This document shows positions 8,963-32,059 of a stretch of 58,403 nt of DNA, piece after piece. The DNA lies in the NCBI GenBank assembly GCA_050329955.1, contig JBHJOH010000053.1, positions 1-58,403 of the forward strand. The letters are read 5' to 3'. The translations under genes and the position numbers were made by a program. Below the pieces are notes generated by a model that saw nothing but the letters and a program-made list of their open reading frames with translations, searched no databases and was not told the DNA's origin. The first letter of the stretch is position 1, and each line of letters opens with the position of its first letter. Source of the DNA: Acidimicrobiia bacterium (GTDB lineage Bacteria > Actinomycetota > Acidimicrobiia > Spongiisociales > ZC4RG35).

Positions 8963-8989
8963 TTCACTGTCGCCGCGCTCGGCCGACAG
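8963..8989 (+). promoter_or_regulatory. Putative sigma28/FliA-WhiG-type promoter
   Basis: TTCA-N15-GCCGACAG, with ATG 7 nt downstream. Confidence 0.55.
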
Positions 8990-8996
8990 GTCTCTC

Positions 8997-9173
8997 ATGC
9001 CCGAAACGATCATCGTTCGTGAGTTCGACAGCTTCCGCACCTACAGCGGGTGGGTGATCAACCGGACCGCCGACACCGTGGTGGTGGCCGTGATCTCCGG
9101 GGCGACCGGAGAGCCGGTGGCCACGCTCATCCCGGCGGCGGCGATCGTTGCCGAGGTGCTTGCGGCGGCGTGA
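8997..9173 (+). CDS. 58-aa hypothetical microprotein (below track cutoff)
   Basis: MPETIIVREFDSFRTYSGWVINRTADTVVVAVISGATGEPVATLIPAAAIVAEVLAAA*. Strong GC bias at third codon positions; fills the intergenic gap; promoter-like motif upstream. Confidence 0.7.
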   Translation: MPETIIVREFDSFRTYSGWVINRTADTVVVAVISGATGEPVATLIPAAAIVAEVLAAA

Positions 9174-9254
9174 CTCCGCCCTGCCGGTCGCGATAGTCGG
9201 CACCCGCTCTCTCCCGATCTCCGCCTAGCCTGACCACATGCTCCCGGGCCCGCG

Positions 9255-11588
9255 TTGATCGTCCGAAACCGCACCGACCTTCCCGCCGACCTGTACCCGC
9301 ACGACCCGTGGGTGCTGGCCGAGGAGGCGTTCGCACCCCGCTTCAGCTATCTCACCGAGACGATTTTCGCCCTGTCGAATGGGCGGTTGGGGATCAGGGC
9401 GACGCTCGACGAGGGCGAGCCCGCCCACGCCCACGGAACCTTCATCAACGGGTTCCACGAGACCTGGCAGATCGTGCATCCCGAGAACGCCTATGGCTAC
9501 GCCAAGGTGGGCCAGACCATTGTCAACGTGCCCGACGCCACCGTCGTGGACATCGAGATCGACGGGAAGCGGCTGGCACCGGAGGCATCACACCGGTTCC
9601 GCCGTTGGCTCGACTTCCGCACCGGGATCCTGGAGAGAGTGACCTCGTGGACGACGACCTCGGGCATCGGCGTCGCCGTGTGGAGCAGGCGGCTGGTGTC
9701 CCTGGCCCACCCCGACACCGCCTCGTTCTGGTTCAGAATCGAAGTCGACCGGGATTGCGACCTCCGGATGACCTCCCGTGTGGTGAACCGCCAGGACACA
9801 AACCGACGGGACTTGCCCGAGGATGACCCACGTCTTTCGGCCAGCCTGCCCCACCGCGTGTTCGAGCCTCGGGCTGCCACGGTGGATGGACCGAGGATGG
9901 TGCAGTCGTGGATCACCGCCCGCTCGAGGATGGGGCTGGTGGTGGCCATCGACCACCAACTCGAGGGCGCCGAGGCAACGGTCACCCATCGCCGCGACGT
10001 CAACGACTTCGCATTCGAGTTTGCCACCACCGCCCGGGCGGGTGAGGCGATCACCCTCACCAAGCACGCCGTATACGTCCAGTCCGAGTCCGAGCCCGGC
10101 CCGATGGAACGCGCCCGGGCCGAGGACGACCTCGACGCCGCGCTAGGGCTCGGGTTCGATGGTCTCGCAGCCGCCCAACGGCTCGCCCTGGAGCGGTTCT
10201 GGGCGGAAGCCGACATCGAAGTGGAGGCCGGCGCCGAAGTGCAACGCGCCATCCGATGGACTCTGTTCCAGCTCCTTCAGGCGTCGGCCAACCTCGACGG
10301 ACTGTCCATCCCCGCCAAGGGTCTCACCGGGCAGGCGTACGACGGCCACTACTTCTGGGACACCGAGATCTACGTGCTCCCCTTCCTCGCCTACACCCGA
10401 CCGAAGCTGGCGGCGGAGATCCTGAGGTTCCGGTACGGGCTCCTTCCGGCTGCTCGCCACCGAGCCTCCGAGATGGCACTCCATGGCGCCCTCTTCCCCT
10501 GGAGGACCATCACCGGTGACGAGGCCTCCGCCTACTTCCTGGCGGGGACGGCGCAATACCACATCAACGCTGACATCGTCTATGCCCTTCGCAAGTACGT
10601 CGAGGTGACCGGCGACACCGACCTGCTGTGGGACATCGGGGTCGAACTGGCGGTCGAAACCGCCCGAATGTGGTTCGATCTCGGCTTTTACCGCAGTGGC
10701 CGCTTCCACATCCACGGGGTCACGGGACCCGACGAGTACACCGCCCTCGTCGACGACAACGCCTACACCAACGCCATGGCACGTATGAATCTTCGGTTTG
10801 CGGCCCAGGCGGTCGACCGGATGCGCCAGGAGGTGCCCGAACGCCGCGCACGCCTCGCTTCGCTGCTCGGACTGACCGAAGACGAGGTGGTGGCGTGGAG
10901 ACTGGCGGGCGACGCCATGTTCATCCCGCACGACATGGATCTCGGGATCACTCCCCAGGACGTGAACTTCCTCACCAAGGAACCCTGGGACTTCGAGGGC
11001 ACGCCGGCGTCGCAGTACCCCCTGCTGCTCCACTTTCATCCCCTCGTGATCTACCGGTTCCAGGTTCTCAAGCAGGCGGACGTTGTCCTGGCCGATTTCC
11101 TGTTGGGCGACGAATTCTCGCCTGAACTGAAACGGTCGAACTTCGAGTACTACGACCCGATCACCACCGGCGACTCGTCCCTGTCGGCATGCGTCCAGTC
11201 GATCATGGCGGCCGAGATCGGCTTCGACGAGGCCGCCTCCGCCCACTTCCAGCATGCGCTGTTCATGGACCTGGCCGATCTGGCGGGCAACACCACCGAC
11301 GGCGTGCACATGGCATCCGCAGGCGGCGTGTGGATGGCGCTCGTATTCGGGTTCGCCGGAGTCCGCGACCACGGTGGCGCGATCAGCATCGACCCGCGGT
11401 TACCCGCCACCTGGGGACGGCTGCGGTTCCGACTGGCGGTCCAGGGTCGCCGCCTCACCGTCGACGTCACCACGACGAGCACGCGGGTCGAGGTGGTGGG
11501 AGAACCGCTCAGGGTCAGGGTCAACGGCACTGCGGTGGTGGTCGACCAGGACACCGCGGTCGAGATCGACAACCCCAGAAGCGGGTGA
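9255..11588 (+). CDS. Glycoside hydrolase family 65 (maltose/trehalose/kojibiose phosphorylase-like)
   Basis: ETIFALSNG, KGLTGQAYDGHYFWDTE, GALFPWRTI, VTGPDEY, KQADVV, DSSLS motifs. TTG start uncertain. Confidence 0.92.
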   Translation: MIVRNRTDLPADLYPHDPWVLAEEAFAPRFSYLTETIFALSNGRLGIRATLDEGEPAHAHGTFINGFHETWQIVHPENAYGYAKVGQTIVNVPDATVVDIEIDGKRLAPEASHRFRRWLDFRTGILERVTSWTTTSGIGVAVWSRRLVSLAHPDTASFWFRIEVDRDCDLRMTSRVVNRQDTNRRDLPEDDPRLSASLPHRVFEPRAATVDGPRMVQSWITARSRMGLVVAIDHQLEGAEATVTHRRDVNDFAFEFATTARAGEAITLTKHAVYVQSESEPGPMERARAEDDLDAALGLGFDGLAAAQRLALERFWAEADIEVEAGAEVQRAIRWTLFQLLQASANLDGLSIPAKGLTGQAYDGHYFWDTEIYVLPFLAYTRPKLAAEILRFRYGLLPAARHRASEMALHGALFPWRTITGDEASAYFLAGTAQYHINADIVYALRKYVEVTGDTDLLWDIGVELAVETARMWFDLGFYRSGRFHIHGVTGPDEYTALVDDNAYTNAMARMNLRFAAQAVDRMRQEVPERRARLASLLGLTEDEVVAWRLAGDAMFIPHDMDLGITPQDVNFLTKEPWDFEGTPASQYPLLLHFHPLVIYRFQVLKQADVVLADFLLGDEFSPELKRSNFEYYDPITTGDSSLSACVQSIMAAEIGFDEAASAHFQHALFMDLADLAGNTTDGVHMASAGGVWMALVFGFAGVRDHGGAISIDPRLPATWGRLRFRLAVQGRRLTVDVTTTSTRVEVVGEPLRVRVNGTAVVVDQDTAVEIDNPRSG

Positions 11589-11596
11589 CGGGAACG

Positions 11597-13810
11597 TCAG
11601 GGTGTCGAGGTCTCCGGTTGCAGCGCCGAATCACCCGAGGACACCGTCAGACGGATCAGTTGACGCTGATCGTCGTACTCCAGAGCGTAGGTCACGCCGT
11701 TGCGGGAGGTGGAGCCGCCGAGACCTTCGACCACCGGGTTGCCCACGTCGAGCCCCATGTCGAGGAGAATCGAACTCAGCTCGGGCCCGGTGGCTTCCGG
11801 CTCGGCGACGTTGATCGCCACCCCGAACGCCTGGATCCCGAGTTGGTCGTCCTGTGGATCGCCCAACGGGTCGACGACCACTGTGTACGAGTCGATGAGG
11901 CCGCCGTCGCCCACCATGCCTTCCAATCCCAGGTAGCGGGTGAACCCGAGGCCGAACGCCCCAACGGCCGGAGCGTCTTCGATGACCAGACTGTCGGTCA
12001 CGCGTGAACCTGTGTCATTCCAGCGATCGACGAACCCGGCCGAGTCGAGTTCGAAGACGGGACGCGAGTCCACCACCTCGATGCCGCCCGTGGTTGTCTC
12101 GTCCTCGGGCACTGTGGTGGATGGCGCCACGGTGCCGCCGGCCGGGATGGTGGTTGCAGGTACCTCCACCTCGGCTTCGGCCTGCACCCGGTCGACCAGG
12201 AAACCGATCACGGTCGGGGTGATGAGGACGAACCCGGCCACGATCGAGAAGATGACCAATCCGATGGTGATCCTCTTGACGAGTGCCGGGGTGAACCGGA
12301 CCACTTTCGACCCCGACCGGAGCTGTTCCTGGGAGGCCAGGATCTGATCGGCGACAGAAACGGAGTCGTCGTCTTCGTCGAGCTCCGGCTGATCCCGAAT
12401 GGCCCCAGCCACAGCCGAGAACCGCTCCCCGGCCGACTTCGAGAAGATCCCACCCATCCCACGCCGTGCAGGGATGCGCTCCACGACGTCTTCCATCTCG
12501 ACCTGGTCGCCCGGCGTGGAGTAGCCGGCGCTGGCGGCGGCGCCTTCCAGGTCGAACTCGGACCCGCGCCTGATGCCGCGCTCCGGGTAGGCACCGTCGC
12601 CGCCGAAGTCGGGGCTGCGCGGGGCAGGCCGGTCCTGCCAGCCGCCCGGCGAGCCGCCTGTTCCGAAACCGCCGTTGCGACCATTGGGCGCGGGATGCGC
12701 CCGGCCCCCACCGGGCATGTCCTCATTGTCGGGCACGTCGTCGCTCTCGTGATCGACCACGGTGTCGTCGGGGTCGACGTCCTGATCGAGCAAAGCCTCC
12801 ACCGCTTCCGGTACCTGCTCGGTTCCTTCGAGCAGATGGGAGGCCCGCCATGAGTCCGTGAGATCCACGTCCTCAGGCTCATCGGCCTGGTACTCATGGT
12901 CAGATGAGCCGAACCCGGTCGCAGCGACGTCCTCATCGTCCTCGACCGCTCCCGGTCGCCACCGGGCGCCCAACTCCGAGCGGGCCGGCAGTGGAGTTTC
13001 GATCTCGATCGGGTCCACGTCGGCCACGCCGGCCACGCCGGCCTCGGCGACGTGAGACGGCGTCCACACGGGTACATCCTGATCCTCACCGACCCAGCCG
13101 GAGACATCGAACGACGGGGCGACAGCGGGGTGGTCGGACTCCGCCTCGGGAGGTGCAGTCGGCGCTCCGGACCACAGGTCGAAGCCGGCGTCGCCCGCGA
13201 CTGCAGGAGGCGCGGTGATCGGGTCGGTCACCGGCACCGGGTCGGGTTCACTCGCCAGGACTTCGTCGATTTCGGGCTGCGAGGGATCGGGCTGGGAGGG
13301 AGAGGGTGCGGAGGTGGGGTCGACCGCCGGCTCCGGTGCGGCGTAGAGGTCGGCGTAAACGGCGGTAACCACCTCGTCGTCCGTTTCTTCATCGATCTCG
13401 TAGTCGGGGTAGGCAGTGGCGAACAGGGCTTCGAGTGTGACGGCGATCTCGGCCGCCGACTCCTCGGCCAGTCCCGGCACCTGATAGGAGGCGTTGCCAC
13501 CCAAAACCTGATCGAGGGCGGCCTCGAGGTCGTAGCCGGCGGCCGGCGGAGGCGCCTCAACCGGGGTCATGCGAGCCACTACGGCCGAGAAGGCGTCGGG
13601 GTGGTCAGGGGAGAATGCAACACGCTCTCCATCGAGGGTGAGCTCGTATGCGCCGCTTGGGAGGGCAGTGACCAGGCAGGCGTCGAGTGGCCAGGCGCCG
13701 ATCTCGGACACACCGGTGGTCAGACGCAGACGACCGCCCGCGATCTCGAGGTCGACATCGACCTCATCGCCCTCAACAAGGGCAAGTTTGCCCGGAAACG
13801 TCCCAATCAT
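11597..13810 (-). CDS. Hypothetical single-pass membrane protein: small N-terminal beta domain, long acidic linker, TM, extracellular domain (paralog A)
   Basis: 737-aa ORF with normal codon usage. TM ITIGLVIFSIVAGFVLITPTVIGFLV. Both terminal domains resemble those of 14222..15187. Confidence 0.8.
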   Translation of the reverse strand: MIGTFPGKLALVEGDEVDVDLEIAGGRLRLTTGVSEIGAWPLDACLVTALPSGAYELTLDGERVAFSPDHPDAFSAVVARMTPVEAPPPAAGYDLEAALDQVLGGNASYQVPGLAEESAAEIAVTLEALFATAYPDYEIDEETDDEVVTAVYADLYAAPEPAVDPTSAPSPSQPDPSQPEIDEVLASEPDPVPVTDPITAPPAVAGDAGFDLWSGAPTAPPEAESDHPAVAPSFDVSGWVGEDQDVPVWTPSHVAEAGVAGVADVDPIEIETPLPARSELGARWRPGAVEDDEDVAATGFGSSDHEYQADEPEDVDLTDSWRASHLLEGTEQVPEAVEALLDQDVDPDDTVVDHESDDVPDNEDMPGGGRAHPAPNGRNGGFGTGGSPGGWQDRPAPRSPDFGGDGAYPERGIRRGSEFDLEGAAASAGYSTPGDQVEMEDVVERIPARRGMGGIFSKSAGERFSAVAGAIRDQPELDEDDDSVSVADQILASQEQLRSGSKVVRFTPALVKRITIGLVIFSIVAGFVLITPTVIGFLVDRVQAEAEVEVPATTIPAGGTVAPSTTVPEDETTTGGIEVVDSRPVFELDSAGFVDRWNDTGSRVTDSLVIEDAPAVGAFGLGFTRYLGLEGMVGDGGLIDSYTVVVDPLGDPQDDQLGIQAFGVAINVAEPEATGPELSSILLDMGLDVGNPVVEGLGGSTSRNGVTYALEYDDQRQLIRLTVSSGDSALQPETSTP

Positions 13811-13847
13811 GCGTTACCTTCGACGTGCACATCCGACTTCACAAACA

Positions 13848-13875
13848 CCATCGGCGGCAGAGCGCTGGGCCTTGA
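13848..13875 (-). promoter_or_regulatory. Putative sigma28-type promoter
   Basis: TCAA-N16-GCCGATGG, 37 nt upstream of the ATG at 13810. Confidence 0.45.
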
Positions 13876-14221
13876 CCTCGAGGTCGAATTCCCACCGTTG
13901 GCGCTCGAACCGGCTTCCCCCTGGTGCGTCGAGACATCTCACCACATCCACGGTGCAAGCACCATACGCCGATCGACCCATTTGAACCTTCCCGTCGACG
14001 GTGACCCGTCGCCACTCCGCGGCCGACCGCCACGGCCAGGGCCGTGACAGCGGAGCCGTTCCCCAACCCATGGACCGGAGGGACACCAACTCCGAAGATG
14101 CCGGTCGGCGCCGCCAATCCACTCCCTTCGTGGAACTGCTCTTGGCGCAACCCTAGCGAAGGCTCTGCGATAGGAGTCTGGGATCGGGATGCGCAGGCCC
14201 TGGAGCCACGAACACCGGGCA

Positions 14222-15187
14222 TCAGCCGCCGTTCGGATCCTCCGACAGGCTGAAGAGCAGCAGTTGCTCGGGTCTGTCGACGTACCGGAGTTCGAACAAC
14301 ATGCCGTCGCCCGCCACTTCCCGCCGGGCGCTGCTGAGGCCCAGTTTGTCCGGGTAGGCCTCGAACCCGAGCCTGCGAAGCAGCTCCACCCCATCGTCGG
14401 TGCTCATGTTCGGTTGCGCCACCGCCAATGCCACCCGTATCGCCTCCACTGCCAACACGCCCTGGTCGGCGTTCCCGGTGACCGTGATGGCGATCTTGAT
14501 GTTCTCGACGGTGCCGTCGGCATCGGTGTTGCCGTCGAAGAGAATCTGATCGGTCACCTGTTCACGGAACTGCTCCGCACTGAACGGAGTCGAGATGGCG
14601 AGTCCGGGAGCCATACGGGCCGAGACGGCGTTCCATCGTTGGCGATAGACTTCGGGAGTCAACGTGAAGACTTCGGGGCCGGTGACGGTCATCGCCGCCA
14701 CCGTTGTCGGCACCGATACCGCCGCCACGGTGGGAGCTGGTCCGAGTTCGCTTCGACCCGCTAACGCGATCAGAGCAGCGGCCGCCACAACGAGAGCTGC
14801 GATGGTGAGGGGAGCTCGGGGCCCGGCCGCGGCGACGGGTGGATCGGTAGGTGCCAGCTGGCGAGGCTCGACAACCACCACCTGCGGTTCGAGCGGCATG
14901 CTGCGGATGACGTTGATGCGATCAGCGAGCGACGAAGCCGAGAACCGCTCGGCGGCGGCCTTGGCAAACCGGAACGCGTCGACGGGAAGGAACGTCGTGG
15001 GTTCACCGTCGATGGTGATGACGAACTCAGATTCATTGAGCCTGGACACGCGGCAGTATTTCAACGGCCATGTCCCGACGGTCATCCCCTCCGCCGCCAC
15101 ACTCAACGTGTCCTCGGACAAATTGAGTACGGCACCCACGATCGTTCCGTCCTGGAGCGTCAATTTGCCCATGAACGAATCGATCAC
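14222..15187 (-). CDS. Hypothetical single-pass membrane protein (paralog B)
   Basis: GTG start at 15187 (MIDSFMGKLTL) chosen by alignment to paralog A. TM LTIAALVVAAAALIALA. Confidence 0.8.
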   Translation of the reverse strand: MIDSFMGKLTLQDGTIVGAVLNLSEDTLSVAAEGMTVGTWPLKYCRVSRLNESEFVITIDGEPTTFLPVDAFRFAKAAAERFSASSLADRINVIRSMPLEPQVVVVEPRQLAPTDPPVAAAGPRAPLTIAALVVAAAALIALAGRSELGPAPTVAAVSVPTTVAAMTVTGPEVFTLTPEVYRQRWNAVSARMAPGLAISTPFSAEQFREQVTDQILFDGNTDADGTVENIKIAITVTGNADQGVLAVEAIRVALAVAQPNMSTDDGVELLRRLGFEAYPDKLGLSSARREVAGDGMLFELRYVDRPEQLLLFSLSEDPNGG

Positions 15188-15264: not shown

Positions 15265-17673
15265 GTGCATCTACCCGTCGAGGCGTCGATCCCAGAGCTG
15301 TGCCAGGCCCTCCGGTCATCCGGGTCTGCTGTCCTGTCGGCTCCTCCCGGCTCCGGGAAGACGACCGTCGTCCCTCTCCGGCTGCTCGAGAACGGCATAC
15401 CCGCAACGGGAACCATCATGATGCTCGAACCGCGGCGGCTCGCCACCCGGGCGGCCGCCCGTCGGATGGCGTCGCTCCTTGGAGAAGAGGTAGGGCAAAC
15501 GGTCGGCTACGTCACCCGGGATGACCGTCAGGTGGGGCCGGAGACGCGTATCGAGGTCGTCACCGAAGGCATCCTCACCCGCAGGCTGCAACGCGACCCG
15601 GAGCTTCCCGGTGTGGGTCTGATCATCTTCGACGAGTTCCACGAGCGGAACCTGCAAACCGACCTGGGTCTGGCCTTCACCCTCGAGACCCGGGCCAGCA
15701 TCCGTCCCGACCTGGCTGTGGTGGTCATGTCGGCGACGCTCGACGCCGACCGCGTCGCCGGGATGCTCGATGCCCCGGTGATCTCCTCCGAGGCACGGAG
15801 CCACCCGGTCGAGATGCGTTGGGTGCCCCCGAAGCGATCGGGCCGCACCGAGGACCACGCCACCGCCATCGTGCTCCGTGCGTTGGAGGCCGACGTGGGC
15901 GATCTGCTCGTCTTCCTCCCCGGAATGGGCGAGATAGAACGGGTGGCCCGTGCGCTCACCGAAGCCGGTGCCGCCGCCGAGATCCACCGACTCCACGGTT
16001 CGCTGCCCGCAGCGGACCAGGACGCGGCCATAACCCCCTCGACCCGTCGGAAGGTGGTGCTGTCGACCGACATCGCCGAGTCCAGCCTCACGGTGGCAGG
16101 AGTGTCGGTCGTGATCGACAGCGGCCTGGCACGGGCGCCCCGATTCGATGTTCGCACCGCCATGACGCGCCTCCAGACCGTGTCCATCTCCCGTGCCTCC
16201 GCCGATCAGCGGGCCGGACGGGCGGGAAGAACCGGACCCGGTGTCGCCTACCGGTTGTGGTCGAAGGTGGAGCACGCAACCCGCCGGGCACACATCGCAC
16301 CCGAGATCACCCAGGTGGACCTCGCAGGGGTGGTGCTCGAGCTCCGGGCGTGGGGAGCGCTCGACGCATCGACGCTGTCATTCCTCGACCCGCCCGCTCC
16401 CAAGAGTCTCGAAGAAGCGACCAGGCTCCTCACGGTTCTCGGTGCCATCGAGGAGGGCCGGCCCGGCCTCACCGGCCTCGGGGAGAAGATGGCCCGCCTC
16501 CCCGTCCATCCGCGCCTGGCTCACATGATCACCGCCTCCGGGGCCGATGCGGGGCTGGCCTGCGTTTTGGCCTCCGTTCTCGAGGATCGGGACCCCATGC
16601 GCGGCCGATCCGACGAGCTTCCCGTCGACATCGCACTCCGCGTGTCGTTGGTGACCGGTCGCTCATCACATGGCGCCGCCGATCGCCGAGGCCTCGAACG
16701 CGTGCGACGCACTGCTGCCGACCTCGCCCGCCGCGTGGGAGCACACATCGACGACGCCGATCCCGACCGTTCGGGATCACTGCTGGCGCTGGCCTTCCCC
16801 GACCGGCTGGCGATTCGTCGGGGCACGCCGGGTCGGTTCCAGCTGCGAACCGGCACGACCGCCTGGGTCTCCTCCAGCGACCCGCTCGCACCCGAGTCGT
16901 TCCTGGTCGCCGCCGACCTCGACGGAAAACGCAAGGACTCGCGCATCCGGCTGGCGGCGGCGATCGACACCGCCGACGTTCTCGAACGCTTCTCATCCGA
17001 GATCGAGATCGGCACGACCCTCATCTGGTCGGGGAATCGACTCGTGTCACGTTGGTCCTCGCGCCTGGGAGGAATCGTGCTCGAGGAGACCGAGCAGCGG
17101 GCCGAGCCCGGACCGGACACGGTTCGTGCCGTGCTCGAGCGCGTCTCCGCCAAGCCGACGCTCCTCCAGTGGACCGACCACGCCCTCTCACTCCGCCAGC
17201 GGGTCGAGTTTCTGCGCCGCCACGACGAGCGCTGGCCCGACTTCTCCGATCGGGGACTCGTGGCCTCCCTCGCCGATTGGCTCGGCCCCGAACTCACATT
17301 CGTCACCGGCCTCGACGAACTCGCCGTGATCGACCTGGGTCGGGTCCTCGAGCGTCGTCTCGGCCACGCGGCCAGAGCGGAACTGGAACGAAGGGCACCC
17401 GCCGAGCTCACCCTCGACAAGACCCGGCGACGGCTCCGCATCGACTACTCCGCCGAGGCCCCGGCGGTGGCGGGAAAGGTCCAGGACTTCTTCGGGACCG
17501 CCACCACCCCCACCGTCGACGGGCGACCGGTGGTCGTGACACTGCTCTCGCCGGCCGGGCGTCCCGTGCAGGTGACAACGGATCTGGCGGGCTTCTGGAC
17601 AGGGAGCTGGCAACAGGTTCGCAAGGAGATGGCGGGCCGCTACCCGAAACACCACTGGCCCGAGCGGCCGTGA
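15265..17673 (+). CDS. hrpB: ATP-dependent RNA helicase HrpB
   Basis: APPGSGKTT, EPRRLA, FDEFHER, MSATL, QRAGRAGR and the C-terminal LLSPAGRPVQVTTDLAGFW...EMAGRYPKHHWP. Confidence 0.95.
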   Translation: MHLPVEASIPELCQALRSSGSAVLSAPPGSGKTTVVPLRLLENGIPATGTIMMLEPRRLATRAAARRMASLLGEEVGQTVGYVTRDDRQVGPETRIEVVTEGILTRRLQRDPELPGVGLIIFDEFHERNLQTDLGLAFTLETRASIRPDLAVVVMSATLDADRVAGMLDAPVISSEARSHPVEMRWVPPKRSGRTEDHATAIVLRALEADVGDLLVFLPGMGEIERVARALTEAGAAAEIHRLHGSLPAADQDAAITPSTRRKVVLSTDIAESSLTVAGVSVVIDSGLARAPRFDVRTAMTRLQTVSISRASADQRAGRAGRTGPGVAYRLWSKVEHATRRAHIAPEITQVDLAGVVLELRAWGALDASTLSFLDPPAPKSLEEATRLLTVLGAIEEGRPGLTGLGEKMARLPVHPRLAHMITASGADAGLACVLASVLEDRDPMRGRSDELPVDIALRVSLVTGRSSHGAADRRGLERVRRTAADLARRVGAHIDDADPDRSGSLLALAFPDRLAIRRGTPGRFQLRTGTTAWVSSSDPLAPESFLVAADLDGKRKDSRIRLAAAIDTADVLERFSSEIEIGTTLIWSGNRLVSRWSSRLGGIVLEETEQRAEPGPDTVRAVLERVSAKPTLLQWTDHALSLRQRVEFLRRHDERWPDFSDRGLVASLADWLGPELTFVTGLDELAVIDLGRVLERRLGHAARAELERRAPAELTLDKTRRRLRIDYSAEAPAVAGKVQDFFGTATTPTVDGRPVVVTLLSPAGRPVQVTTDLAGFWTGSWQQVRKEMAGRYPKHHWPERP

Positions 17674-23195: not shown

Positions 23196-23210
23196 GACGC
23201 CGACTCGGGC

Positions 23211-23237
23211 TAAACCCCCGCCCTCCCGAGCCGATAA
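23211..23237 (+). promoter_or_regulatory. sigma28 (FliA/WhiG) promoter
   Basis: Exact match to the consensus TAAA-N15-GCCGATAA, upstream of the HDOD gene. Confidence 0.75.
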
Positions 23238-23295
23238 GAGTGGAGAGCATCCCGGCCATCCGAGGCCATCGACGAGTCAGTACCAGGAGCGGGGA

Positions 23296-24441
23296 ATGAG
23301 TGTCCAGGCTTTGTTCATCGACGACGACCCACGCGTGCTGGCGGAGTTCGAGCAGCTGGTGTCATCCGGGAGCCTGGGCATCGACGCCACCATCGCTTCC
23401 TCCCCCGAGGAGGGACTGAACGCCCTCAGGTCCGGCACCTACGAGGTCATCGTGGCCGGTGCAGGGTCGCCCACCGACAAGACCGTCGGCGTGCTCCGGG
23501 AAGCGGCTTCGAACCATCCGGCGGTGGCCCGCCTGCTGGTGACATCCGACCGCAACGCCTCGCGCAGTGGCCTCGCCGAGCAGTACCTGTGGCGCCCCTT
23601 CGACGCCGACAAGCTACGGATCGCCGTGCTCGCCGCCACCCACCTGCGTGGTCGAGTCACCCCTGAACGGCTGGCCGCACTGGTCAACGGCTCCACCAAG
23701 ATTCCCACGCTTCCCGACATCTACGTCAAGATCCAGGAGGAGCTCCGTTCCTCGGATCCGTCGATGGCGAAGGTCGGTCTCCTCGTCAAGAACGACCCGG
23801 CCATCTCGGTCAAGGTGCTGCAGACGGTGAACTCGGCGATGTTCGGCCTCCGCAACGAGGTGGGTGACGTGGCCCAGGCCACCGCCCTGCTCGGTCTCAA
23901 CACCATCACATCGCTGGTGCTGGCCGTTGGGGTTTTCCAACAGGCTTCCGGTCTCGACCGCAAGCTGATCGAGGAGCTGTGGCAGGAGTCGCTCCGTGTC
24001 AGCGCAATCGCCCGCCGTATCGCCTCAGCCGAGGGACTCGACCGCCGCTCCACCGAGGAGAGCCAGCTGGCCGGACTGCTGCATGACATCGGCGAGCTGG
24101 TGCTGTTCCAGAACTGGCGCAACGACTACCTGGAGATCAGCACAACCAACCGCCTCGACGACGAACGCAAGCGTTTCGGAGCCACCCACGCCGACCTCGG
24201 TGGATATCTGTGCGCACTCTGGGATCTTCCGTCCGAAGTGATCCGGGCCGTTGCCAACCATCACATTCCTTCCGCGGTCCCCGCTTCGACGGTCACCGCC
24301 ACGACGGTGGTCCATGTGGCCCGTGCTCTCGTCGACGCCGGTGGCGACCACGAGAACGCCGCCTTCGACACGGCCCACCTCGAGCAGATCGATGCGTACG
24401 GCCGCTGCGAGGTGTGGGCGAAAGCGGCCCAGGAAGCCTGA
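23296..24441 (+). CDS. Receiver-like plus HDOD domain signalling protein
   Basis: ALFIDDD receiver start; IPTLP, DPAISVKVLQTVNSAMFG, AGLLHDIG and E...FGATHADLG...W.LP...AVANHH. Confidence 0.9.
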   Translation: MSVQALFIDDDPRVLAEFEQLVSSGSLGIDATIASSPEEGLNALRSGTYEVIVAGAGSPTDKTVGVLREAASNHPAVARLLVTSDRNASRSGLAEQYLWRPFDADKLRIAVLAATHLRGRVTPERLAALVNGSTKIPTLPDIYVKIQEELRSSDPSMAKVGLLVKNDPAISVKVLQTVNSAMFGLRNEVGDVAQATALLGLNTITSLVLAVGVFQQASGLDRKLIEELWQESLRVSAIARRIASAEGLDRRSTEESQLAGLLHDIGELVLFQNWRNDYLEISTTNRLDDERKRFGATHADLGGYLCALWDLPSEVIRAVANHHIPSAVPASTVTATTVVHVARALVDAGGDHENAAFDTAHLEQIDAYGRCEVWAKAAQEA

Positions 24442-24446
24442 GCCGC

Positions 24447-25318: not shown

Positions 25319-26344
25319 ATGAAGCTGGGTCTGGTGATCGGATACTGGGGCGCAGGGCCACCCGATGGGGTCGAGGATCAGATCCGCACGGCCGACGAGT
25401 TGGGTTTCGACTCGATGTGGAGCGCCGAGGCCTACGGCTCCGATGCCTTCACCCCTCTCGCCTGGTGGGGCTCGCAAACCCGTTCCATCAAGCTCGGGAC
25501 GGCCATCGCCCAGATGTCGGCCCGGGCCCCGGCCGCCACCGCAATGGCGGCCATGACCATGGACCACCTCACGCAGGGTCGCTTCATCCTCGGCCTCGGA
25601 GCCTCGGGGCCACAGGTAGTGGAGGGGTGGTACGGGATGCCCTATCCGAAGCCGCTGGCCCGTACCCGCGAGTACGTCGAGATCGTGCGCCGGGTCATCG
25701 CCCGCCAGGATCCGGTCTCGTTCGATGGCGAGCACTTCACGCTGCCGTACCGGGGTGGAGCCGGGTTGGGCAAGGCCCTCAAGTCGACCATCCACCCCTA
25801 CCGACCCGATCTGCCCATCTACCTGGCAGCGGAAGGCCCGAAGAACGTGGCCCTGGCGGCCGAGATCGCCGATGGGTGGCTGCCGTTCTGGTTCTCGCCG
25901 TCATCGGACGCGTTCTACCGCTCGGCCTTGACAGAAGGGTTCAGCCGGCCCGGCGCCCGTCACGATGCCGCCAGTTTCGAAGTCGCCTGCCCGGTCCCGG
26001 TGGTGATCGATGCCGATCCGGAGAAGGCGGCCGACACCATCCGGCCGATGCTGGCGCTGTACGTGGGCGGGATGGGCGCCAAGGGTGCCAACTTCCACTT
26101 CGATGTCATCGCCCGCATGGGATACGAAGAGGAGGCGAACCGCATCCAGGAGCTGTATATGGCGGGCAGGAAGGCCGAGGCGATCGCTTCGATCCCCCTC
26201 CACATGATCGAGGACATCGCCCTGGTGGGCCCACCCGCCAAGATCAAAGAGGAGCTCCCCCGCTGGGAGTCGACCGTCATCACCACCATGCTCATCTCGG
26301 GACCGCCACCGTTGCTCGAGGCGGTGGCACGGCTCCTTGGGTGA
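25319..26344 (+). CDS. LLM-class F420-dependent oxidoreductase
   Basis: MKLGLVIGYW, AEAYGSDAFTPL, GRFILGLGASGPQVVEGW, AAEGPKNV. GGAGGA RBS. Confidence 0.9.
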   Translation: MKLGLVIGYWGAGPPDGVEDQIRTADELGFDSMWSAEAYGSDAFTPLAWWGSQTRSIKLGTAIAQMSARAPAATAMAAMTMDHLTQGRFILGLGASGPQVVEGWYGMPYPKPLARTREYVEIVRRVIARQDPVSFDGEHFTLPYRGGAGLGKALKSTIHPYRPDLPIYLAAEGPKNVALAAEIADGWLPFWFSPSSDAFYRSALTEGFSRPGARHDAASFEVACPVPVVIDADPEKAADTIRPMLALYVGGMGAKGANFHFDVIARMGYEEEANRIQELYMAGRKAEAIASIPLHMIEDIALVGPPAKIKEELPRWESTVITTMLISGPPPLLEAVARLLG

Positions 26345-26382
26345 GGGACCGGACCACTCGGGAGCGCCGGTAGCCTGCGCCG

Positions 26383-27825
26383 GTGAATGCTCCCAGCGGC
26401 GATGAACCGGCGCCGGAGGTCGACTACTCGAAGAAGTGGTACTCGATGGCCGCCGTGGGGGTGGGCGTCCTGCTGGCCACCATCGACGGCTCGATCGTCA
26501 ACGTGGCACTGCCGACGATCCGCACCCAGCTCGACACCACCCTGCCGGTGGTGCAGTGGGTGTCGGTGGCGTACCTCCTGACCCTGGCGAGCCTGACGCT
26601 GAGCGTCGGCCGTTGGGGTGACATCGTCGGCAAGAAGCGCATCTATGTATGGGGCTTCATCCTCTTCACGATCGCTTCGGTGTTGTGCGGGGTCGCTCCC
26701 AGCATCGAGTTCCTGATCGGGTTCCGAGTGCTGCAGGCGCTGGGAGCGGTCATGGTGCTGGCCCTCGGCGCCTCGATACTCACCGAGGCGTTCCCGCCAC
26801 ACGAGCGCGGCAAGGCGTTGGGCCTGATCGGGACGTTCGTGTCGGTCGGGATCGTGAGCGGCCCCGTCGTGGGTGGCCTGCTGATCGAATCGTTCGACTG
26901 GCGGGCCATCTTCTTCGTGAACCTCCCGGTGGGCCTCATCGGCACCATCATCGCCATCAAGTACGTCCCCGCCACTCCCCCACCCGGCGGCCAGACCTTC
27001 GATGTGCGCGGTTCGGTGACGTTGACGGCTGCGCTGGCGTGCATCGCTCTGGCGGTCACCGCCGGCCAGGAGTTGGGGTACGGCTCCGGGCTCATCGTCG
27101 GGGGGCTGATCACCGGGTTGGCGCTCGGATTCGCCTTCATTCGCATCGAGCGAACAGCGTCATCGCCGATGATCGACCTGGCCATCTTCCGGAATCCGGT
27201 GCTCACCGTGAGCGTCGTCAGTGGCTATCTGGTGTACGGGGGGCTGTCCGGGGTGTTCTTTCTGCTGCCGTTCTACCTCGAAGGCGTGCTCGGATACAAC
27301 ACCCGCCAGACCGGCCTGGCACTGGGCATCGCACCGCTGATCCTGGGAATGGTGGCGCCGATCGCCGGGAGCTTGTCGGACCGCCTGGGGATTCGCCGCA
27401 TCACCATGATCGGGTTGGTGATCCTGGGATTGTCCTACGGGGCCTTCTACACCCTCTCCACCGAAACCACACTCCTGCAGTACGTCCTCATCGCCATTCC
27501 GATCGGCGTGGGGTTTGGGATGTTCCAGTCCCCCAACAACAGCGCCATCATGGGCTCGGTCCCCCGGGAGCACTCGGGCGTGGCGGGCGGCCTGCTCACG
27601 CTGACCCGGCTTCTCGGCCAGGTCACCGGTATCGCCGTGCTGGGCTCGTTCTGGGCCGCCCGGGTCTCCGCCCGGGATGACGGATCGATGGTCGGCGACG
27701 CCGTGACGGCACCGCCCGACATCCAGGTTGCGGCCCTGCATGACACCGCCCTGGTGATGGCCGCGCTCAGCATCGCCGCCATCCTCATCGGTGCCTGGGG
27801 ACTGAGGCGCGAGCAGCACGGCTGA
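26383..27825 (+). CDS. DHA2-type (14-TM) MFS efflux transporter
   Basis: DGSIVNVALP, GRWGDIVGKK, WRAIFFVNLPVG, FQSPNNSAIM. Confidence 0.9.
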   Translation: MNAPSGDEPAPEVDYSKKWYSMAAVGVGVLLATIDGSIVNVALPTIRTQLDTTLPVVQWVSVAYLLTLASLTLSVGRWGDIVGKKRIYVWGFILFTIASVLCGVAPSIEFLIGFRVLQALGAVMVLALGASILTEAFPPHERGKALGLIGTFVSVGIVSGPVVGGLLIESFDWRAIFFVNLPVGLIGTIIAIKYVPATPPPGGQTFDVRGSVTLTAALACIALAVTAGQELGYGSGLIVGGLITGLALGFAFIRIERTASSPMIDLAIFRNPVLTVSVVSGYLVYGGLSGVFFLLPFYLEGVLGYNTRQTGLALGIAPLILGMVAPIAGSLSDRLGIRRITMIGLVILGLSYGAFYTLSTETTLLQYVLIAIPIGVGFGMFQSPNNSAIMGSVPREHSGVAGGLLTLTRLLGQVTGIAVLGSFWAARVSARDDGSMVGDAVTAPPDIQVAALHDTALVMAALSIAAILIGAWGLRREQHG

Positions 27826-27831
27826 CGCGTC

Positions 27832-27862
27832 GAGTGGCTCCCCTCGACGAGGGGAGCCACTC
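27832..27862. terminator. Hairpin between convergent genes, probable bidirectional terminator
   Basis: GAGTGGCTCCCCTCG-A-CGAGGGGAGCCACTC perfect inverted repeat. Confidence 0.7.
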
Positions 27863-27874
27863 AGATGCTCGTGC

Positions 27875-28216
27875 CTACAGGATCCAGATCAGAAGGAACG
27901 TCAGCGCAGCCACGAAGGCGACACCGGAGAACAGGGTTCCCGACGTCGCTCCTCCGGTCCACGCCCCGTCAACCAGATAGGCCTTCCGAGCGTAGATGGC
28001 CAATGCCGTTCCGATCAGGGTGCCGGCCGCCACGAACATGGCGAACCACCATCCCTCGACCAGTCCTCCCATGAACCAGTCCGCCGGCACCGAGTACATG
28101 TACAAGCCGATCAGACCCGCAATGGTTCCCACGATGCCGAGCGTCCACTCCATGGTGTGACGGACGACCGGCGTGTGCAGCACCTGAAGGTGCTCGCGAT
28201 CACGAAGCAGTGTCAT
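27875..28216 (-). CDS. Small hypothetical membrane protein (3 TM)
   Basis: AAAGGAGGTG RBS before ATG at 28216; three hydrophobic segments. Confidence 0.75.
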   Translation of the reverse strand: MTLLRDREHLQVLHTPVVRHTMEWTLGIVGTIAGLIGLYMYSVPADWFMGGLVEGWWFAMFVAAGTLIGTALAIYARKAYLVDGAWTGGATSGTLFSGVAFVAALTFLLIWIL

Positions 28217-28290
28217 CGTCACCTCCTTTCAGATCCATGGTGCGGCACCTCGGCGGCGTGGGGTAGGGCCGAAGCGCCAGAAGAGACCAT

Positions 28291-28481
28291 GCAGAACGCA
28301 GAACGCCGAACGCAGAACGCCCAAGGCAGCGACCTCGGCAACCGCGAGCCCTGGCAGTCGCAGAAGCGATGGGCCTTCTGTCGATATGGTGCGCTAGCGG
28401 CGAGCGTGTCGGTGAACCCGCTCCTGCCGGCGTCACGCTCGGCGAGGCGTTCTGCGTTTTGCGTTCTGCATTCTGCGTTCT
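28291..28481. repeat. Inverted heptamer-repeat element with about 125-nt spacer
   Basis: GCAGAAC GCAGAAC GCCGAAC GCAGAAC GCC ... GGCGTTCT GCGTTTT GCGTTCT GCATTCT GCGTTCT; same unit as 20446-20552. Confidence 0.85.
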
Positions 28482-29716
28482 CAGGCCAGCACGTTCTTGG
28501 CGTCGACTCCGATCGGGTCGCGGTCGATGGCGAACAGGGCCATGGGGACGGTGGTATCGAACTCGTGGCGGGCGGCGCCGAGGGCCTGGGCGACCATCGA
28601 CCCGATCATGGGGGCGAGTTTGAAGCCGTGGCCGCTGAAACCGTTGGCCAGCCAGAAGCCGTCGACGCCGCTGGGGCCGACCACGGGGTGCACGTCCTGG
28701 CGGTTGATGGTGTAGAGGCCGGCGATGCCGGTGACGTTCCCGCGGGCGGCCACGGCCGGGAGGCGGTGGGCGAAGGCGGCCAGGGTGGTGTCGCGGAAGC
28801 CGGCGCTGGGGCTGCGGGCGAATTCGTCAGGGTCGGCCACCTCCTCGCGTTCGTCCTCCTCGCGTACCGATCCGATCCACACCATCGACGAGGCGCGTTC
28901 GGGACGGGCATACACGCCGGTGGCGACATCGATGGTGACGGGGATTTCTCCTGCCTCCTGGGACGGCCACGGCCGGTACAGGGTCTGGATGCGGGTGGGC
29001 ACGAAGCTCCAGCGGTGCTCGACGCCGGCCAGGGCATTGAGCTGATTGCACCAGGGGCCGGCGGCGTTGACCACCAGGTCGGCGGCGATCGACCCGCCGT
29101 CGGCCAGCCGGACACCGTGCACCCCGGAGCCATCGACGTCGACTCCCACCACCTCACTCGAGAAACGGAGGTCGACCCCTGACGCAGCGGCCGATACCAG
29201 CAAGTCCGAGAGGGTATCCATGGGGTCGATGTAGCCGGCCCGATCCTCGAACAGAAAGGCGGGGCTCGACTGGCAGTGGTGTTCGGTATCCCAGTCGAGG
29301 GGTGCGGCGCAGGACGAGATGGCAGGGAAGCGCTTGGTCAACTCGGTGCCGTCGAGGAGACCGGCCCCGGCTCCGAGCGCCTGAAGCCGCTGCACCTCGG
29401 AGGCCACCTCGTCGTGGGTGCGATCGGCGATCCACAGCACACCGGTTTCCACGAACGAGGCCGTGCTCGAGGTGGTTCGCAGATACTCGGACCACCGGCG
29501 GTAGGCGTCAAGACCGTCGATGGCCAGCCGCACCACCGCCGGATGGGTGTAGCGGGTTCGACAGATCGACGACGACGCACCGGTGGAACCCTCCCCCGGT
29601 CCGGGAGCCTTGTCGAACAGCACAACCCGTCCCAGCCCGTGCCGGGCGACTTCCAGGGCGATGGATGCGCCGACCACGCCGCCGCCGATGACGACGACGT
29701 CGGCACCGCGACTCAC
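28481..29716 (-). CDS. FAD-dependent oxidoreductase (DAO/sarcosine oxidase beta-like)
   Basis: DVVVIGGGVVG, GSTGASS, VVNAAGPW, GFSGHGFKLAP. Confidence 0.9.
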   Translation of the reverse strand: MSRGADVVVIGGGVVGASIALEVARHGLGRVVLFDKAPGPGEGSTGASSSICRTRYTHPAVVRLAIDGLDAYRRWSEYLRTTSSTASFVETGVLWIADRTHDEVASEVQRLQALGAGAGLLDGTELTKRFPAISSCAAPLDWDTEHHCQSSPAFLFEDRAGYIDPMDTLSDLLVSAAASGVDLRFSSEVVGVDVDGSGVHGVRLADGGSIAADLVVNAAGPWCNQLNALAGVEHRWSFVPTRIQTLYRPWPSQEAGEIPVTIDVATGVYARPERASSMVWIGSVREEDEREEVADPDEFARSPSAGFRDTTLAAFAHRLPAVAARGNVTGIAGLYTINRQDVHPVVGPSGVDGFWLANGFSGHGFKLAPMIGSMVAQALGAARHEFDTTVPMALFAIDRDPIGVDAKNVLA

Positions 29717-30738
29717 GGGATGGTCACCAGGTAGTCGCTGGCTTCATCATTCCACTCCAGCTCGACCAGTCCCCTGGTCTGGGCGGCCTTGACGAACTGG
29801 AGGAATCCGCCGTACCCGAAGTTCTTCTCGCTGAAGCCGGGCTGACGTTTGCGAACCTGGTTCTTGAGACCCGAGAGCACCGGACCGCCGTTGCGACCGG
29901 CCAGCGCCTTCACCACTTCCACCAGCACCCCGAAAGCCTCGTCCTCATTGGGGTTGTTGGCCAGCTCCACCATCGGGTCGCCCTTGGCGGGACCTTCCGC
30001 CAGAGCCACCACGTCGTGGTTCTCGAGGTGGCGTAGCAACTCGCCGAATGCCCGGAAGCCGTAGTCGGCCTCGCTGAAGGTGGGGTCCTTGCGGATGAGC
30101 GCCCGCTTGAGCGACGAGGCGAGCACGGCCTCGCCACCGCTGCGCTGCAGACCGGTGACGGTGGTGGTGATGAGGCGCACCAGATCGTCGAGCCCCACCT
30201 CGGCGCCGGCTCCTTTGGCGACCACCTGCACGGGGGGGTCGTCGGAGCGCCCGCGATCCACGCCGTCGAGGTTCTCGTAGAAGAGGAACTCGTCGCAGGC
30301 GGGGGGAAGCATTGCCGAGGTGGAAGCGCGGATGCCCACGCCGATCACCCGCTTGTTCAGCTCACGCAGCTTGTGCACGAGTGGGGTGAAGTCGGAGTCG
30401 CCGGTTCCGATCACGAACGTGGTGATGTACTCGCGTTCGAAGGCCAACTCGATGGCGTCGACCGCCATCTTGATGTCGGCGGCGTTCTTTCGCACCGCCC
30501 CCATCCGTTGGGTGATCTCGATCAGTTCGACGTGGTTGCGGGTGAGCATGCGCCGGTCCTCGTCGAACATCGACCAGTCGGCGTAGGCCTTGCGGGCCAC
30601 CACCCGGCCGCGTTCTGCCAGGGCATCGGAGATGGGTTTGAGGTCGAAGGCCGCTCCGGAGAGGGCTTCTCTGGTTCCGATCGCCAGGTTCTCGTAGTCG
30701 AGGAACAGTGCGATGCGTTCGTCATCGGGTGTGGTCAC
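29713..30738 (-). CDS. NYN/LabA (DUF88) nuclease-fold protein with two OST-HTH/LOTUS domains
   Basis: FLDYEN, KNAADIKMAVD, GTGDSDFTPL; DPTFSEADYGFRAF and QPGFSEKNFGYGGF repeats. Confidence 0.88.
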   Translation of the reverse strand: MTTPDDERIALFLDYENLAIGTREALSGAAFDLKPISDALAERGRVVARKAYADWSMFDEDRRMLTRNHVELIEITQRMGAVRKNAADIKMAVDAIELAFEREYITTFVIGTGDSDFTPLVHKLRELNKRVIGVGIRASTSAMLPPACDEFLFYENLDGVDRGRSDDPPVQVVAKGAGAEVGLDDLVRLITTTVTGLQRSGGEAVLASSLKRALIRKDPTFSEADYGFRAFGELLRHLENHDVVALAEGPAKGDPMVELANNPNEDEAFGVLVEVVKALAGRNGGPVLSGLKNQVRKRQPGFSEKNFGYGGFLQFVKAAQTRGLVELEWNDEASDYLVTIP

Positions 30739-30841
30739 AAGCCCGAGGCTACACCGAAGCGCCGGTTGGGCAGGCGGTGCCGCATGCGATTGGGGTCGAA
30801 GGGCCCATTCGGTCGGGCCCGAGACGAGCCGATGGAAATCG

Positions 30842-31768
30842 ATGCGCTCCGTTCACAAGGTGGTTGCCGCCACGGTGCCCGGCGCGGTTGCTCTGGCAGT
30901 CGTCAGGTACCGCCAAGCCGTGCGCCAGTTGGACTCTCTCCCGGTGCAACCGCCGGCGCTGCCGGGCGTGGTCCGCAGCCTCGCCACCCGGTGGGGCCGC
31001 ATCAGCTACCGGTTGATCTCGAGACCGGAGTCGCCGCACCCGGCGATCGTGCTGGTGCACGGGTGGGGCCGAACCGCCGACTCGGCATGGTGGCCGGTGA
31101 TGCTTGAGTCCAACCGCAGCATCCTGGCCATCGACCTGCCCGGGCACGGCCGGTCGGTGATCGAACGCAGATTCTCCTTCTCACTCGCCGCCGAGTCGAT
31201 CCTGGCGGCCATCGACGACGCCGGCGTCGACCGTCCATTGCTGGCGGGCCATTCGATGGGTGGCCCGGTGTGTCTGACCACCATCCTGTGGGCGGGGGCT
31301 TCGACCTTCACCGGTTTCGTGGCGCTGGCCACCTCGGCCTACTGGGTGCGACCCCGCCAGATGGTGATGGTGGCGTCGGCACCGTACGTGTTGGGTGCCC
31401 GCTCGCCGGTGATGCTTCGCACCCAGCGGAACGAGGCACGGCGGATGCCGGACGACACCTCGCGCATCGCCTGGGAGTACGCGGTGCGCCCGGATCGACA
31501 GGTGCTGTTGGACACCGCCATGGAGCTGCGCCGCTTCGACGCCCGCCGATGGACCGGCTTGCAGATGCCGCCCACCACCTGGGTGATCACCACCCGCGAC
31601 GGCGTGATCGACGCCGAGGATCAACGAGTGTCCGCCACCATGTTCGCCCAGCACCGACTGGAGATCTCGAGCGAGCATTCGGTGGTGATCGAGGCGCCGA
31701 CCCAGGTGACGCGTATTCTCGACGCCGTCTCGGCCCGTCCGGACGGCCCCGCCCTCATCGCCATCTGA
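30842..31768 (+). CDS. Alpha/beta fold hydrolase
   Basis: VLVHGW, IDLPGHG, GHSMGG nucleophile elbow. Confidence 0.85.
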   Translation: MRSVHKVVAATVPGAVALAVVRYRQAVRQLDSLPVQPPALPGVVRSLATRWGRISYRLISRPESPHPAIVLVHGWGRTADSAWWPVMLESNRSILAIDLPGHGRSVIERRFSFSLAAESILAAIDDAGVDRPLLAGHSMGGPVCLTTILWAGASTFTGFVALATSAYWVRPRQMVMVASAPYVLGARSPVMLRTQRNEARRMPDDTSRIAWEYAVRPDRQVLLDTAMELRRFDARRWTGLQMPPTTWVITTRDGVIDAEDQRVSATMFAQHRLEISSEHSVVIEAPTQVTRILDAVSARPDGPALIAI

Positions 31769-31833
31769 CCACTGGCCCTCGGGGTCGACTCAGCGCAACA
31801 ACAGCATGGCCGTCCCACCGGGAAAGGACCGAC

Positions 31834-32025
31834 TCAACTCGCCAGCGCCCGCACCGGAACCGCCCAGACCGGTTCCGGCACCCGGAGGTCGACGACCGAG
31901 GTCACCGCCAGACGGTGCATGGTCATGTCGAGCCCGTGGCTCGAGCAGTAGTGGGCACCGGCGATGATCACGACCGAAGGCCGTTCGCACCGTCCGCAGA
32001 AGTGAGTCACACCTATGTGATTCAT
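31834..32025 (-). CDS. 63-aa putative zinc-binding microprotein (CxxC-x13-CxxH)
   Basis: MNHIGVTHFCGRCERPSVVIIAGAHYCSSHGL...VVDLR...VRALAS*; promoter-like motif 7 nt upstream. Confidence 0.7.
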   Translation of the reverse strand: MNHIGVTHFCGRCERPSVVIIAGAHYCSSHGLDMTMHRLAVTSVVDLRVPEPVWAVPVRALAS

Positions 32026-32032
32026 ACATCAG

Positions 32033-32059
32033 GTATCGGCGTGGTCGAGCCGGAGTGAA
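32033..32059 (-). promoter_or_regulatory. Putative sigma28-type promoter
   Basis: TTCA-N15-GCCGATAC, ATG 7 nt downstream; same geometry as 8963-8989. Confidence 0.6.

Follow-up and report, generated by a model that had tools for sequence, protein, structure and literature searches.

Do four genes scattered over one contig belong to a single sigma-28 regulon? The question is raised by a 58,403-nucleotide (nt) stretch of an Acidimicrobiia genome (contig JBHJOH010000053.1; "the window" below means this whole stretch), in which related motifs precede the genes for a 58-amino-acid (aa) microprotein, a 63-aa microprotein, a 737-aa membrane protein and an HDOD-domain protein. An earlier note on this DNA had placed all four under one motility or developmental sigma factor and had proposed that both microproteins are transcribed leaderless. 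Our analysis separates two sigma-28 promoter classes, here called F and W, which likely belong to two paralogous sigma factors working in series, first a WhiG2 with predicted gating by cyclic di-GMP (c-di-GMP) and after it a flagellar WhiG1-type factor.

Two classes of promoter-like sites

All four motifs were found where the earlier note had placed them. The arrangement CTTCACT-N13-GCCGA-N10-ATG lies at 8962-8986 on the plus strand (ATG at 8997) and at 32060-32036 on the minus strand (ATG at 32025), TAAA-N15-GCCGATAA at 23211-23237 and TCAA-N16-GCCGATGG at 13875-13848 on the minus strand. The first pattern has just two matches in the 4.09-Mb genome (67% GC, 89.6% complete), both at the microproteins, and TAAA-N15-GCCGATAA has a single one, the HDOD site. 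Judged by sequence, all four are genuine promoter-like sites.

Genes were called with a dicodon model (4,191 genes), on which the intergenic counts and the positions of starts rest. GCCGA alone occurs 34,955 times, with a slight peak of start codons at a distance (d) of 10 nt (51 vs about 35), and the loose intergenic pattern suggested in the earlier note was poorly specific by itself (449 matches in the genome, 81 of them intergenic). Since the plain GCCGA peak was only slight, we replaced the loose pattern with two-block models, and these were enriched. An initial single-class model settled on class W and failed to pick up the flagellar sites. The F model (consensus CTTRAC-N14-GCCGACNGG) came from 14 seeds on flagellar contigs and was trained without the window contig; the W model (CTCAA-N15/17-GYCGATR) came from 26 textbook-like seeds outside the window. 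At 17 bits or more we counted 47 intergenic F sites vs 4.9 expected from a Markov background, and 66 W sites vs 5.5, an excess in keeping with the earlier note. Just one site is common to the sets with F of at least 16 and W of at least 15 bits.

Spacer sweeps over the whole genome gave 21 matches to CTT-N17-GCCGACNGG and 3-10 for other spacers, except for N19 with 18. For CTCAA-N15/16/17-GCCGATR they gave 7, 6 and 5, with 0-2 for other spacers, and crossed -35/-10 combinations of F and W showed no excess. These sweeps, which need no gene calls, show that the -35 and -10 blocks are coupled. The sites have several properties of sigma-28 promoters, namely two blocks, fixed spacing and intergenic enrichment, in a genome that encodes a cognate sigma factor. 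A single motif class serving the two paralogs was not seen, given the one shared site and the differing distributions among genomes.

The two classes precede different genes. We scanned 51 proteins downstream of F sites and 37 downstream of W sites, picked from 100 and 65 in the regions. F sites precede flgB-flgC-fliE-fliF-fliG, flhB, fliM, fliN, motA, flbD, flgN and both flagellin genes, as well as HDOD and HD proteins and kinases; outside the flagellar cluster and the training seeds they also precede the genes for ComFB and a YjfB motility protein. W sites stand before a CpaB/Tad operon and before genes for a CheA-like kinase, a PilT-family ATPase and four subtilases, along with kinase genes and an HDOD paralog. 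The flagellar contigs carry 16 F sites vs one W site. Upstream of a group-2 sigma gene (G000:C142:414-560), possibly a further tier, lie sites of both classes (F 17.6, W 20.1).

Within the window, the 58-aa site scores 24.3 F and 5.9 W bits, with 0.0 such sites expected under the F model in all intergenic DNA, and ranks 5th among all intergenic sites. It remains F-type in the orthologs (22.0, 15.2 and 13.8 bits), where GCCGAC[AT]GG and the N10 spacing are retained in 3/3. The 737-aa site scores 18.2 W and -1.0 F bits (2.5 expected under the W model) and is W-type in two of three orthologs (18.2 in G001, 21.8 in G003), the G002 site not being recovered. The HDOD site scores 15.0 F and 14.7 W bits (15 and 26 expected by chance) and is retained in 3/3 orthologs. 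These three sites exceed chance. The 63-aa site scores 5.8 F and 10.3 W bits, and 225 sites are expected by chance at that W score. Since it is weak alone, its case depends on ortholog conservation: it is clearly W in G002 and G003 (19.3), in G004 (15.0) and in the distant G344 (21.5), and N10 is kept in 5/5 close orthologs.

Conservation of the motif is divided. GCCGA-N10 is kept; CTTCACT is replaced by CTACAG in 2/3 orthologs of the 58-aa gene and by CTCAAT in 2/5 of those of the 63-aa gene, and the two sets also differ consistently in their -10 tails (GAC[AT]GG vs GATA[CT]). CTTCACT is thus no conserved box shared by the two microproteins. By these sequence comparisons the 58-aa site is assigned to class F and the 737-aa site to class W, the HDOD site falls between the two, and the 63-aa site, W-like or hybrid, probably places its gene in class W. 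One sigma factor co-controlling all four genes does not fit this split.

Table 1. Genes, promoter-like sites and neighbouring features in the window
Feature	Position	Strand	Remarks
58-aa open reading frame (ORF)	8997..9173	+	predicted leaderless; modelled five-strand small beta-barrel, Sm/Hfq/SH3-like fold
Promoter-like site of class F (flagellar WhiG1-type), CTTCACT-N13-GCCGACAGG	8962..8990	+	predicted transcription start (+1) at 8997
737-aa acidic single-pass membrane protein	11597..13810	-	no known family
Class W (WhiG2-type) promoter-like site GTCAAGG-N14-GCCGATGGTG	13846..13876	-	leader of about 30 nt; 737-aa gene
HDOD-domain protein	23296..24441	+	receiver-like N-terminus; leadered, with Shine-Dalgarno (SD) sequence
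Textbook sigma-28 site CTAAACC-N13-GCCGATAAGA	23210..23239	+	between both classes; HDOD gene
63-aa ORF	31834..32025	-	putative zinc site CxxC-x13-CxxH; predicted leaderless
Hybrid or W-class site CTTCACT-N13-GCCGATACCT	32031..32060	-	predicted +1 at 32025; 63-aa ORF
Additional F-like site	15333..15362	-	upstream of the 321-aa ORF; absent from the earlier note; tentative
321-aa membrane ORF	14222..15187	-	
GAAAA tract	32060..32070	-	directly upstream of the 63-aa -35 box
Tandem repeats GTCGCAA, AGCCAGA	8895..8955		upstream of the 58-aa promoter
ECF-type sigma gene	42815..43341	+	in-frame TAG at about 42922

The geometry described for the two microproteins was confirmed: neither is preceded by an SD-like word or by a TANNNT -10 box, and the start codon coincides with the predicted +1. 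The Pseudomonas aeruginosa fliC promoter is numbered (-15)GCCGATAA(-8) (PMC12784957, seen in part), which puts +1 exactly ten bases after GCCGA. Leaderless starts are common throughout this genome: at distances of 6 and 7 nt ahead of a start codon, TANNNT occurs 374 and 278 times, vs about 20-55 at other offsets. Among F sites (one duplicate dropped), ATG or GTG follows GCCGA at 10-13 nt in 25/46, vs 20/185 controls lacking the -35 block; without the training seeds the count is 16/33 (p 2e-6). W sites have a start codon at 9-12 nt in 30/66 vs 57/412, a range set after the profile had been seen, and in flagellar regions of relatives 17/47 F sites show leaderless spacing. Leaderless transcription of both microproteins and of many F and W targets is therefore what we expect with good confidence from the sequence, much as the earlier note had predicted for the microproteins.

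The sigma factors and their sites across genomes

The genome encodes two sigma-28-family genes, flagellins and RsiG, which agrees with the sigma-28-type control proposed earlier. In a TIGR02479 scan the gene on contig C161 reached 280 bits, over the cut-off, and the gene on C119 reached 178 bits, below it. The first lies in the context xerC-whiG-rpsB, and its alignment to Streptomyces WhiG keeps VKFVAGR intact, including K57/G61/R62, the residues that Denis et al. (PMC13595943) name as contacts of c-di-GMP. The C119 gene is located inside the flagellar cluster, near flhA, flhB, csrA and flgL, and has GHIVSEV at those positions, lacking K57/G61/R62. By sequence and context, the C161 protein reads as WhiG2 and the C119 protein as a flagellar WhiG1-type paralog. 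RsiG (PF22802) is of the twin-motif type, with two copies of ExxxSxxRxxx[HQ]xxxD, which we take to be the RsiG motif pattern. A PF04316 search of the genome, 89.6% complete, turned up no FlgM, which is no proof of its absence. Part of the flagellar region is present twice in the assembly, with identical stretches on different contigs (G000 C133:1-60 and C182:35788-35830; the C93 end and the C119 end).

Relatives of the C119 gene are labelled mostly Acidimicrobiia. Quick trees, which included no named WhiG1 reference, placed it in a non-WhiG2 clade (Shimodaira-Hasegawa-like approximate likelihood ratio test 96) and there in a subclade of its own (99, 16 rows), with DSTR/DATR in region 2.4 where others have DELR. 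The arginines and the aspartate that read GCCGA are aligned in both sigma factors. Region 4.2 reads ESRVCQIH in WhiG2 vs EARVSQIR in C119, and the change of Ser to Ala is the residue most clearly fixed as different there, with Ala in all 74 motif-matching loci of 78 whiG1 loci. It aligns with P. aeruginosa S224, which touches -35 bases (PMC12784957). These differences are a possible source of promoter specificity, offered only as a lead.

We then compared pattern counts with reversed-pattern controls in 61 genomes. WhiG2 was found in 57 of them, while 16 had a WhiG1-like gene and 8 a FliC-type flagellin. Those having both flagellin and WhiG1 (n=8) gave 114 F matches vs 24 in the control and 80 W vs 23. 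Those with WhiG2 only (n=41) had 39 F vs 79 and 276 W vs 81; this group includes G014, which has a FlgL-like match only, and the unpublished G050 (1 F, 7 W), which does not affect the outcome. Genomes with WhiG1 and no flagellin (n=8) had 71 W vs 22, and the four in which no WhiG was found had 5 F vs 5 and 5 W vs 6. Class F is thus abundant only where the flagellar paralog and flagellin co-occur, and class W tracks WhiG2. From this co-occurrence we consider it very probable that the WhiG1-type sigma factor reads class F and WhiG2 reads class W.

The 80 whiG1 loci collected, several of them from the genomes just counted, contain 82 F sites vs 5.4 expected, spread over 53 loci. WhiG1-like genes at L051 and L053-L057 (G040, G060, G051, G015, a second locus of G023, and G020) keep a W promoter and nearby F sites with no linked flagellin found; they may be what is left after flagella were lost.

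On the four flagellar contigs the sole W site of at least 17 bits stands 45 nt before whiG1 itself. A W site of at least 14 bits within 250 nt of whiG1 was found in 44/78 loci (two of the 80 were dropped because their upstream sequence was too short), mostly 40-65 nt upstream, and in 22/28 loci at 60% identity or more; shuffles gave 13/1,560 and reverse strands 5/78. No W site was found upstream of whiG2 in nine genes (best 8.2). Because class W is abundant where WhiG2 is the sole WhiG, WhiG2 would be the factor that transcribes whiG1, and WhiG1 possibly reads class W beside it. A cascade from WhiG2 to WhiG1 to the flagellum is therefore, on these sites, the likely arrangement.

The proposed model and its alternatives

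In the proposed model, falling c-di-GMP would free WhiG2 from RsiG, a gating predicted here by analogy with Streptomyces. WhiG2 would then read class W and switch on whiG1, together with genes for Tad and type IV pili, for a CheA-like kinase and for secreted proteases, as well as the 737-aa gene and, probably, the 63-aa gene. The WhiG1-type factor would in turn read class F and drive the entire flagellum, in both its early and late operons, together with signalling genes and the 58-aa gene. Both sigma factors would start transcription 10-13 nt past GCCGA, giving many leaderless targets, both microproteins included. We lean, with some reserve, towards the fuller picture of an actinobacterial lineage of flagellar sigma-28 factors that evolved an orthogonal promoter code and acts as a FlgM-free master of the entire flagellum directly under the c-di-GMP-gated WhiG2, in a largely leaderless cascade that includes an Sm/Hfq-fold microprotein.

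Several observations weigh against this model. The F seeds were picked by hand from the flagellar genes of this same genome. The eight flagellated genomes represent just four genera and kin are not independent, so we state no p-value for that comparison; in the eight genomes that have WhiG1 without flagellin, no excess of F matches appears over the whole genome (21 vs 18 in the control). At whiG1, 34/78 loci have no W site of at least 14 bits, and seven have an F site of at least 14, one of them also with a W score. Negative coding scores were obtained for the ORFs that five of the 25 F-site starts at d=10-13 open. In the window set, the HDOD site changes class between orthologs: its tail is W-like in G001, and G002 and G003 have the F-type GCCGACTGG (19.3 bits). 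The 63-aa site is a hybrid or weak one in 3/6 close genomes (weak in G001 and G023). According to PMC12784957, mutating S224 of P. aeruginosa had no noticeable effect in vitro. Finally, Denis et al. (PMC13595943) found that Geodermatophilus WhiG1 and WhiG2 each complement Streptomyces whiG, and judged their promoters similar.

That cross-complementation also speaks for one overlapping regulon, in which both paralogs read F and W as mere preferences and the W site at whiG1 reflects autoregulation or shared control. The GCCGA core common to both classes and the hybrid sites (HDOD, 63-aa and CTCAAGT-GCCGACAGG at C130) point the same way, as does a sister WhiG1 lineage that keeps Ser and DELR and has one flagellar locus (G611) with four W sites and no F site. 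The single site shared by the F and W sets, the background level of F in the 41 WhiG2-only genomes and the 16:1 ratio on the flagellar contigs all go against such overlap, and we judge it unlikely. The sister lineage may even reconcile the F/W split with the published shared promoters, as a lead only.

It is quite improbable that class F is read by some other factor travelling with the flagellar cluster, such as a sigma factor of the extracytoplasmic function (ECF) type or an activator with WhiG2. The 39 Sigma70_r2 matches in the genome speak for such a factor, and it would suit the missing F excess in the eight WhiG1-positive, flagellin-negative genomes; however, class F retains the sigma-28 geometry and core, the 53 of 80 whiG1 loci with F sites include the flagellin-negative G060, G015 and G020, and no further sigma gene was seen in the listed C119 stretch. 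We give very little credit to the idea that the microprotein sites are chance GCCGA words in GC-rich DNA, or the short ORFs untranslated. The abundance of GCCGA and the low coding score and weak site of the 63-aa ORF would allow it, but N10 is exact in 3/3 and 5/5 close orthologs with 57-91% protein identity and diverging spacers, the same geometry recurs in the distant G344, and Cys and His are conserved.

Microproteins, neighbouring genes and known systems

The 58-aa ORF has a coding score of 31.7 in the dicodon model and is conserved in 3/4 congeners (60 relatives were surveyed for both microproteins). Neither it nor the 737-aa protein matched Pfam or NCBIfam, no relative of it was found among metagenome contigs, and the ESM Atlas gave only unnamed rows at 0.75-0.76. 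Its model is a confident five-strand small beta-barrel (predicted local distance difference test, pLDDT, 91.7). The Z scores were 9.4 to the Kustd1711 C-terminal domain, 7.8 to GerQ and 7.2-7.3 to Hfq, the Hfq value lying in the common-fold range, with a root-mean-square deviation of 1.0-1.5 A across 46-49 residues of Hfq chains. The likeness to Hfq/Sm lies in the five-strand small barrel; unlike Hfq, the protein has neither the N-terminal helix nor a sequence match, and its best structural rows (Kustd1711, GerQ, biotin ligase) are no RNA chaperones. This common fold gives no proof of function. As a weaker guess, the modelled barrel might bind RNA or protein in the motile phase; RNA binding specifically is doubtful.

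For the 63-aa ORF the coding score is low (9.0), and the ORF is conserved in 4/4 congeners and in G023; its alignment gave three candidate loci among metagenome contigs. The motif CxxC-x13-CxxH is conserved in the alignment and the model is modest (pLDDT 68.9). A profile search found only 17 matches, none named, among 1.84 billion representatives, and within the order matches occur in 7/401 genomes; a weak homolog in G373 has no promoter site. The structural search returned weak zinc-finger rows only (E at least 0.4), Foldseek gave no match at E of 0.001 or below for either microprotein model, and the ESM Atlas gave nothing usable for this protein. We tentatively suggest a zinc-binding adaptor, as a possibility. 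Each microprotein has a conserved C-terminal tail rich in Ala (-AA invariant; -ALAS nearly invariant), which may resemble ClpX C-terminal degrons. The GAAAA tract at the 63-aa -35 box is present in 5/5 close orthologs and is possibly a UP-like element or an activator site. Runs of 7-mers like the repeats upstream of the 58-aa promoter are also present elsewhere between genes in this genome, and in G001.

A single hydrophobic segment, around residue 514, was found in the 737-aa protein, whose N-terminal 74 aa are 35% identical to the upstream 321-aa ORF, the two neighbours sharing an N-terminal domain. These adjacent relatives differ in their promoters, with a W site at the 737-aa gene and a tentative F site at the 321-aa ORF, which scores F 15.3 in the window and 18.3 in G001 and was not found in G002 or G003. 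The HDOD protein matches PF08668, with a weak response-regulator match at residues 6-130. Overlapping minus-strand ORFs at 8633-9040, 13839-14222 and 31790-32404 were rejected (coding scores -59 to -71). The ECF-type sigma gene in Table 1 is broken by its TAG and is a pseudogene or an assembly error.

The WhiG1 and WhiG2 clades of Actinomycetota were defined by Denis et al. 2026 (PMC13595943; preprint PMC12871210, both seen in part). Their clades resemble the present pair in the RsiG/c-di-GMP-gated WhiG2, the flagella-linked WhiG1 without FlgM, the GCCGA core, and targets in motility, chemotaxis and pili. Their search pattern XT(C/A)AX-N16-GCCGA would overlook most CTT-type F sites. In the available text the overlap between WhiG1 and WhiG2 is left open (PMC13595943), and individual regulons are called not predictable when both are present (PMC12871210). 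"Acidimicrob" and "leaderless" do not occur in the main text of PMC13595943, the two Acidimicrobiia rows looked up in its Table S1 are both without WhiG1, and its available parts describe neither a WhiG2-to-whiG1 cascade nor leaderless use; its target tables, in which cluster 26 comprises WhiG homologs, could list whiG genes with such sites.

The RsiG-(c-di-GMP)-WhiG switch of Rubrobacter, a unicellular actinobacterium, likewise has WhiG2 promoters before type IV pilus genes, confirmed by start-site mapping; the available part of that paper describes no additional, flagellar sigma-28 that has a promoter class to itself, and RsiG is single-motif there vs twin-motif here (PMC8325347). The FliA paralogs of Actinoplanes missouriensis are WhiG1-clade sigma factors that drive genes of the flagellum and of pili and whose regulons differ in part, but they are all WhiG1, and their reported consensus CTCA-N16/17-GCCGAACT looks like class W, not F (as described in PMC12871210 and PMC13595943). 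The FliA/SigD-FlgM systems of Pseudomonas, Salmonella and Bacillus share the TAAA-N15-GCCGATAA geometry and a +1 ten bases past GCCGA (PMC12784957, in part). In those systems sigma-28 drives late genes under the FlgM checkpoint, whereas F sites here also stand before early operons (flgB-fliG, flhB, fliM).

Sigma-28 regulons are thus well known; in the literature searched, which included few subscription papers, we found no separate WhiG1 and WhiG2 promoter classes, no WhiG2-to-whiG1 cascade and no wide leaderless use. Separable promoters together with a conserved WhiG2-type site on whiG1 make both regulon separation and the cascade testable, and so provide a testable answer to whether co-existing sigma-28 factors control separate gene sets. 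The two classes also supply a sequence rule for placing unknown genes, overlooked leaderless microproteins included, in the motility or the pilus programme. If true, the model would give a route by which c-di-GMP gates motility transcription in uncultured Acidimicrobiia.

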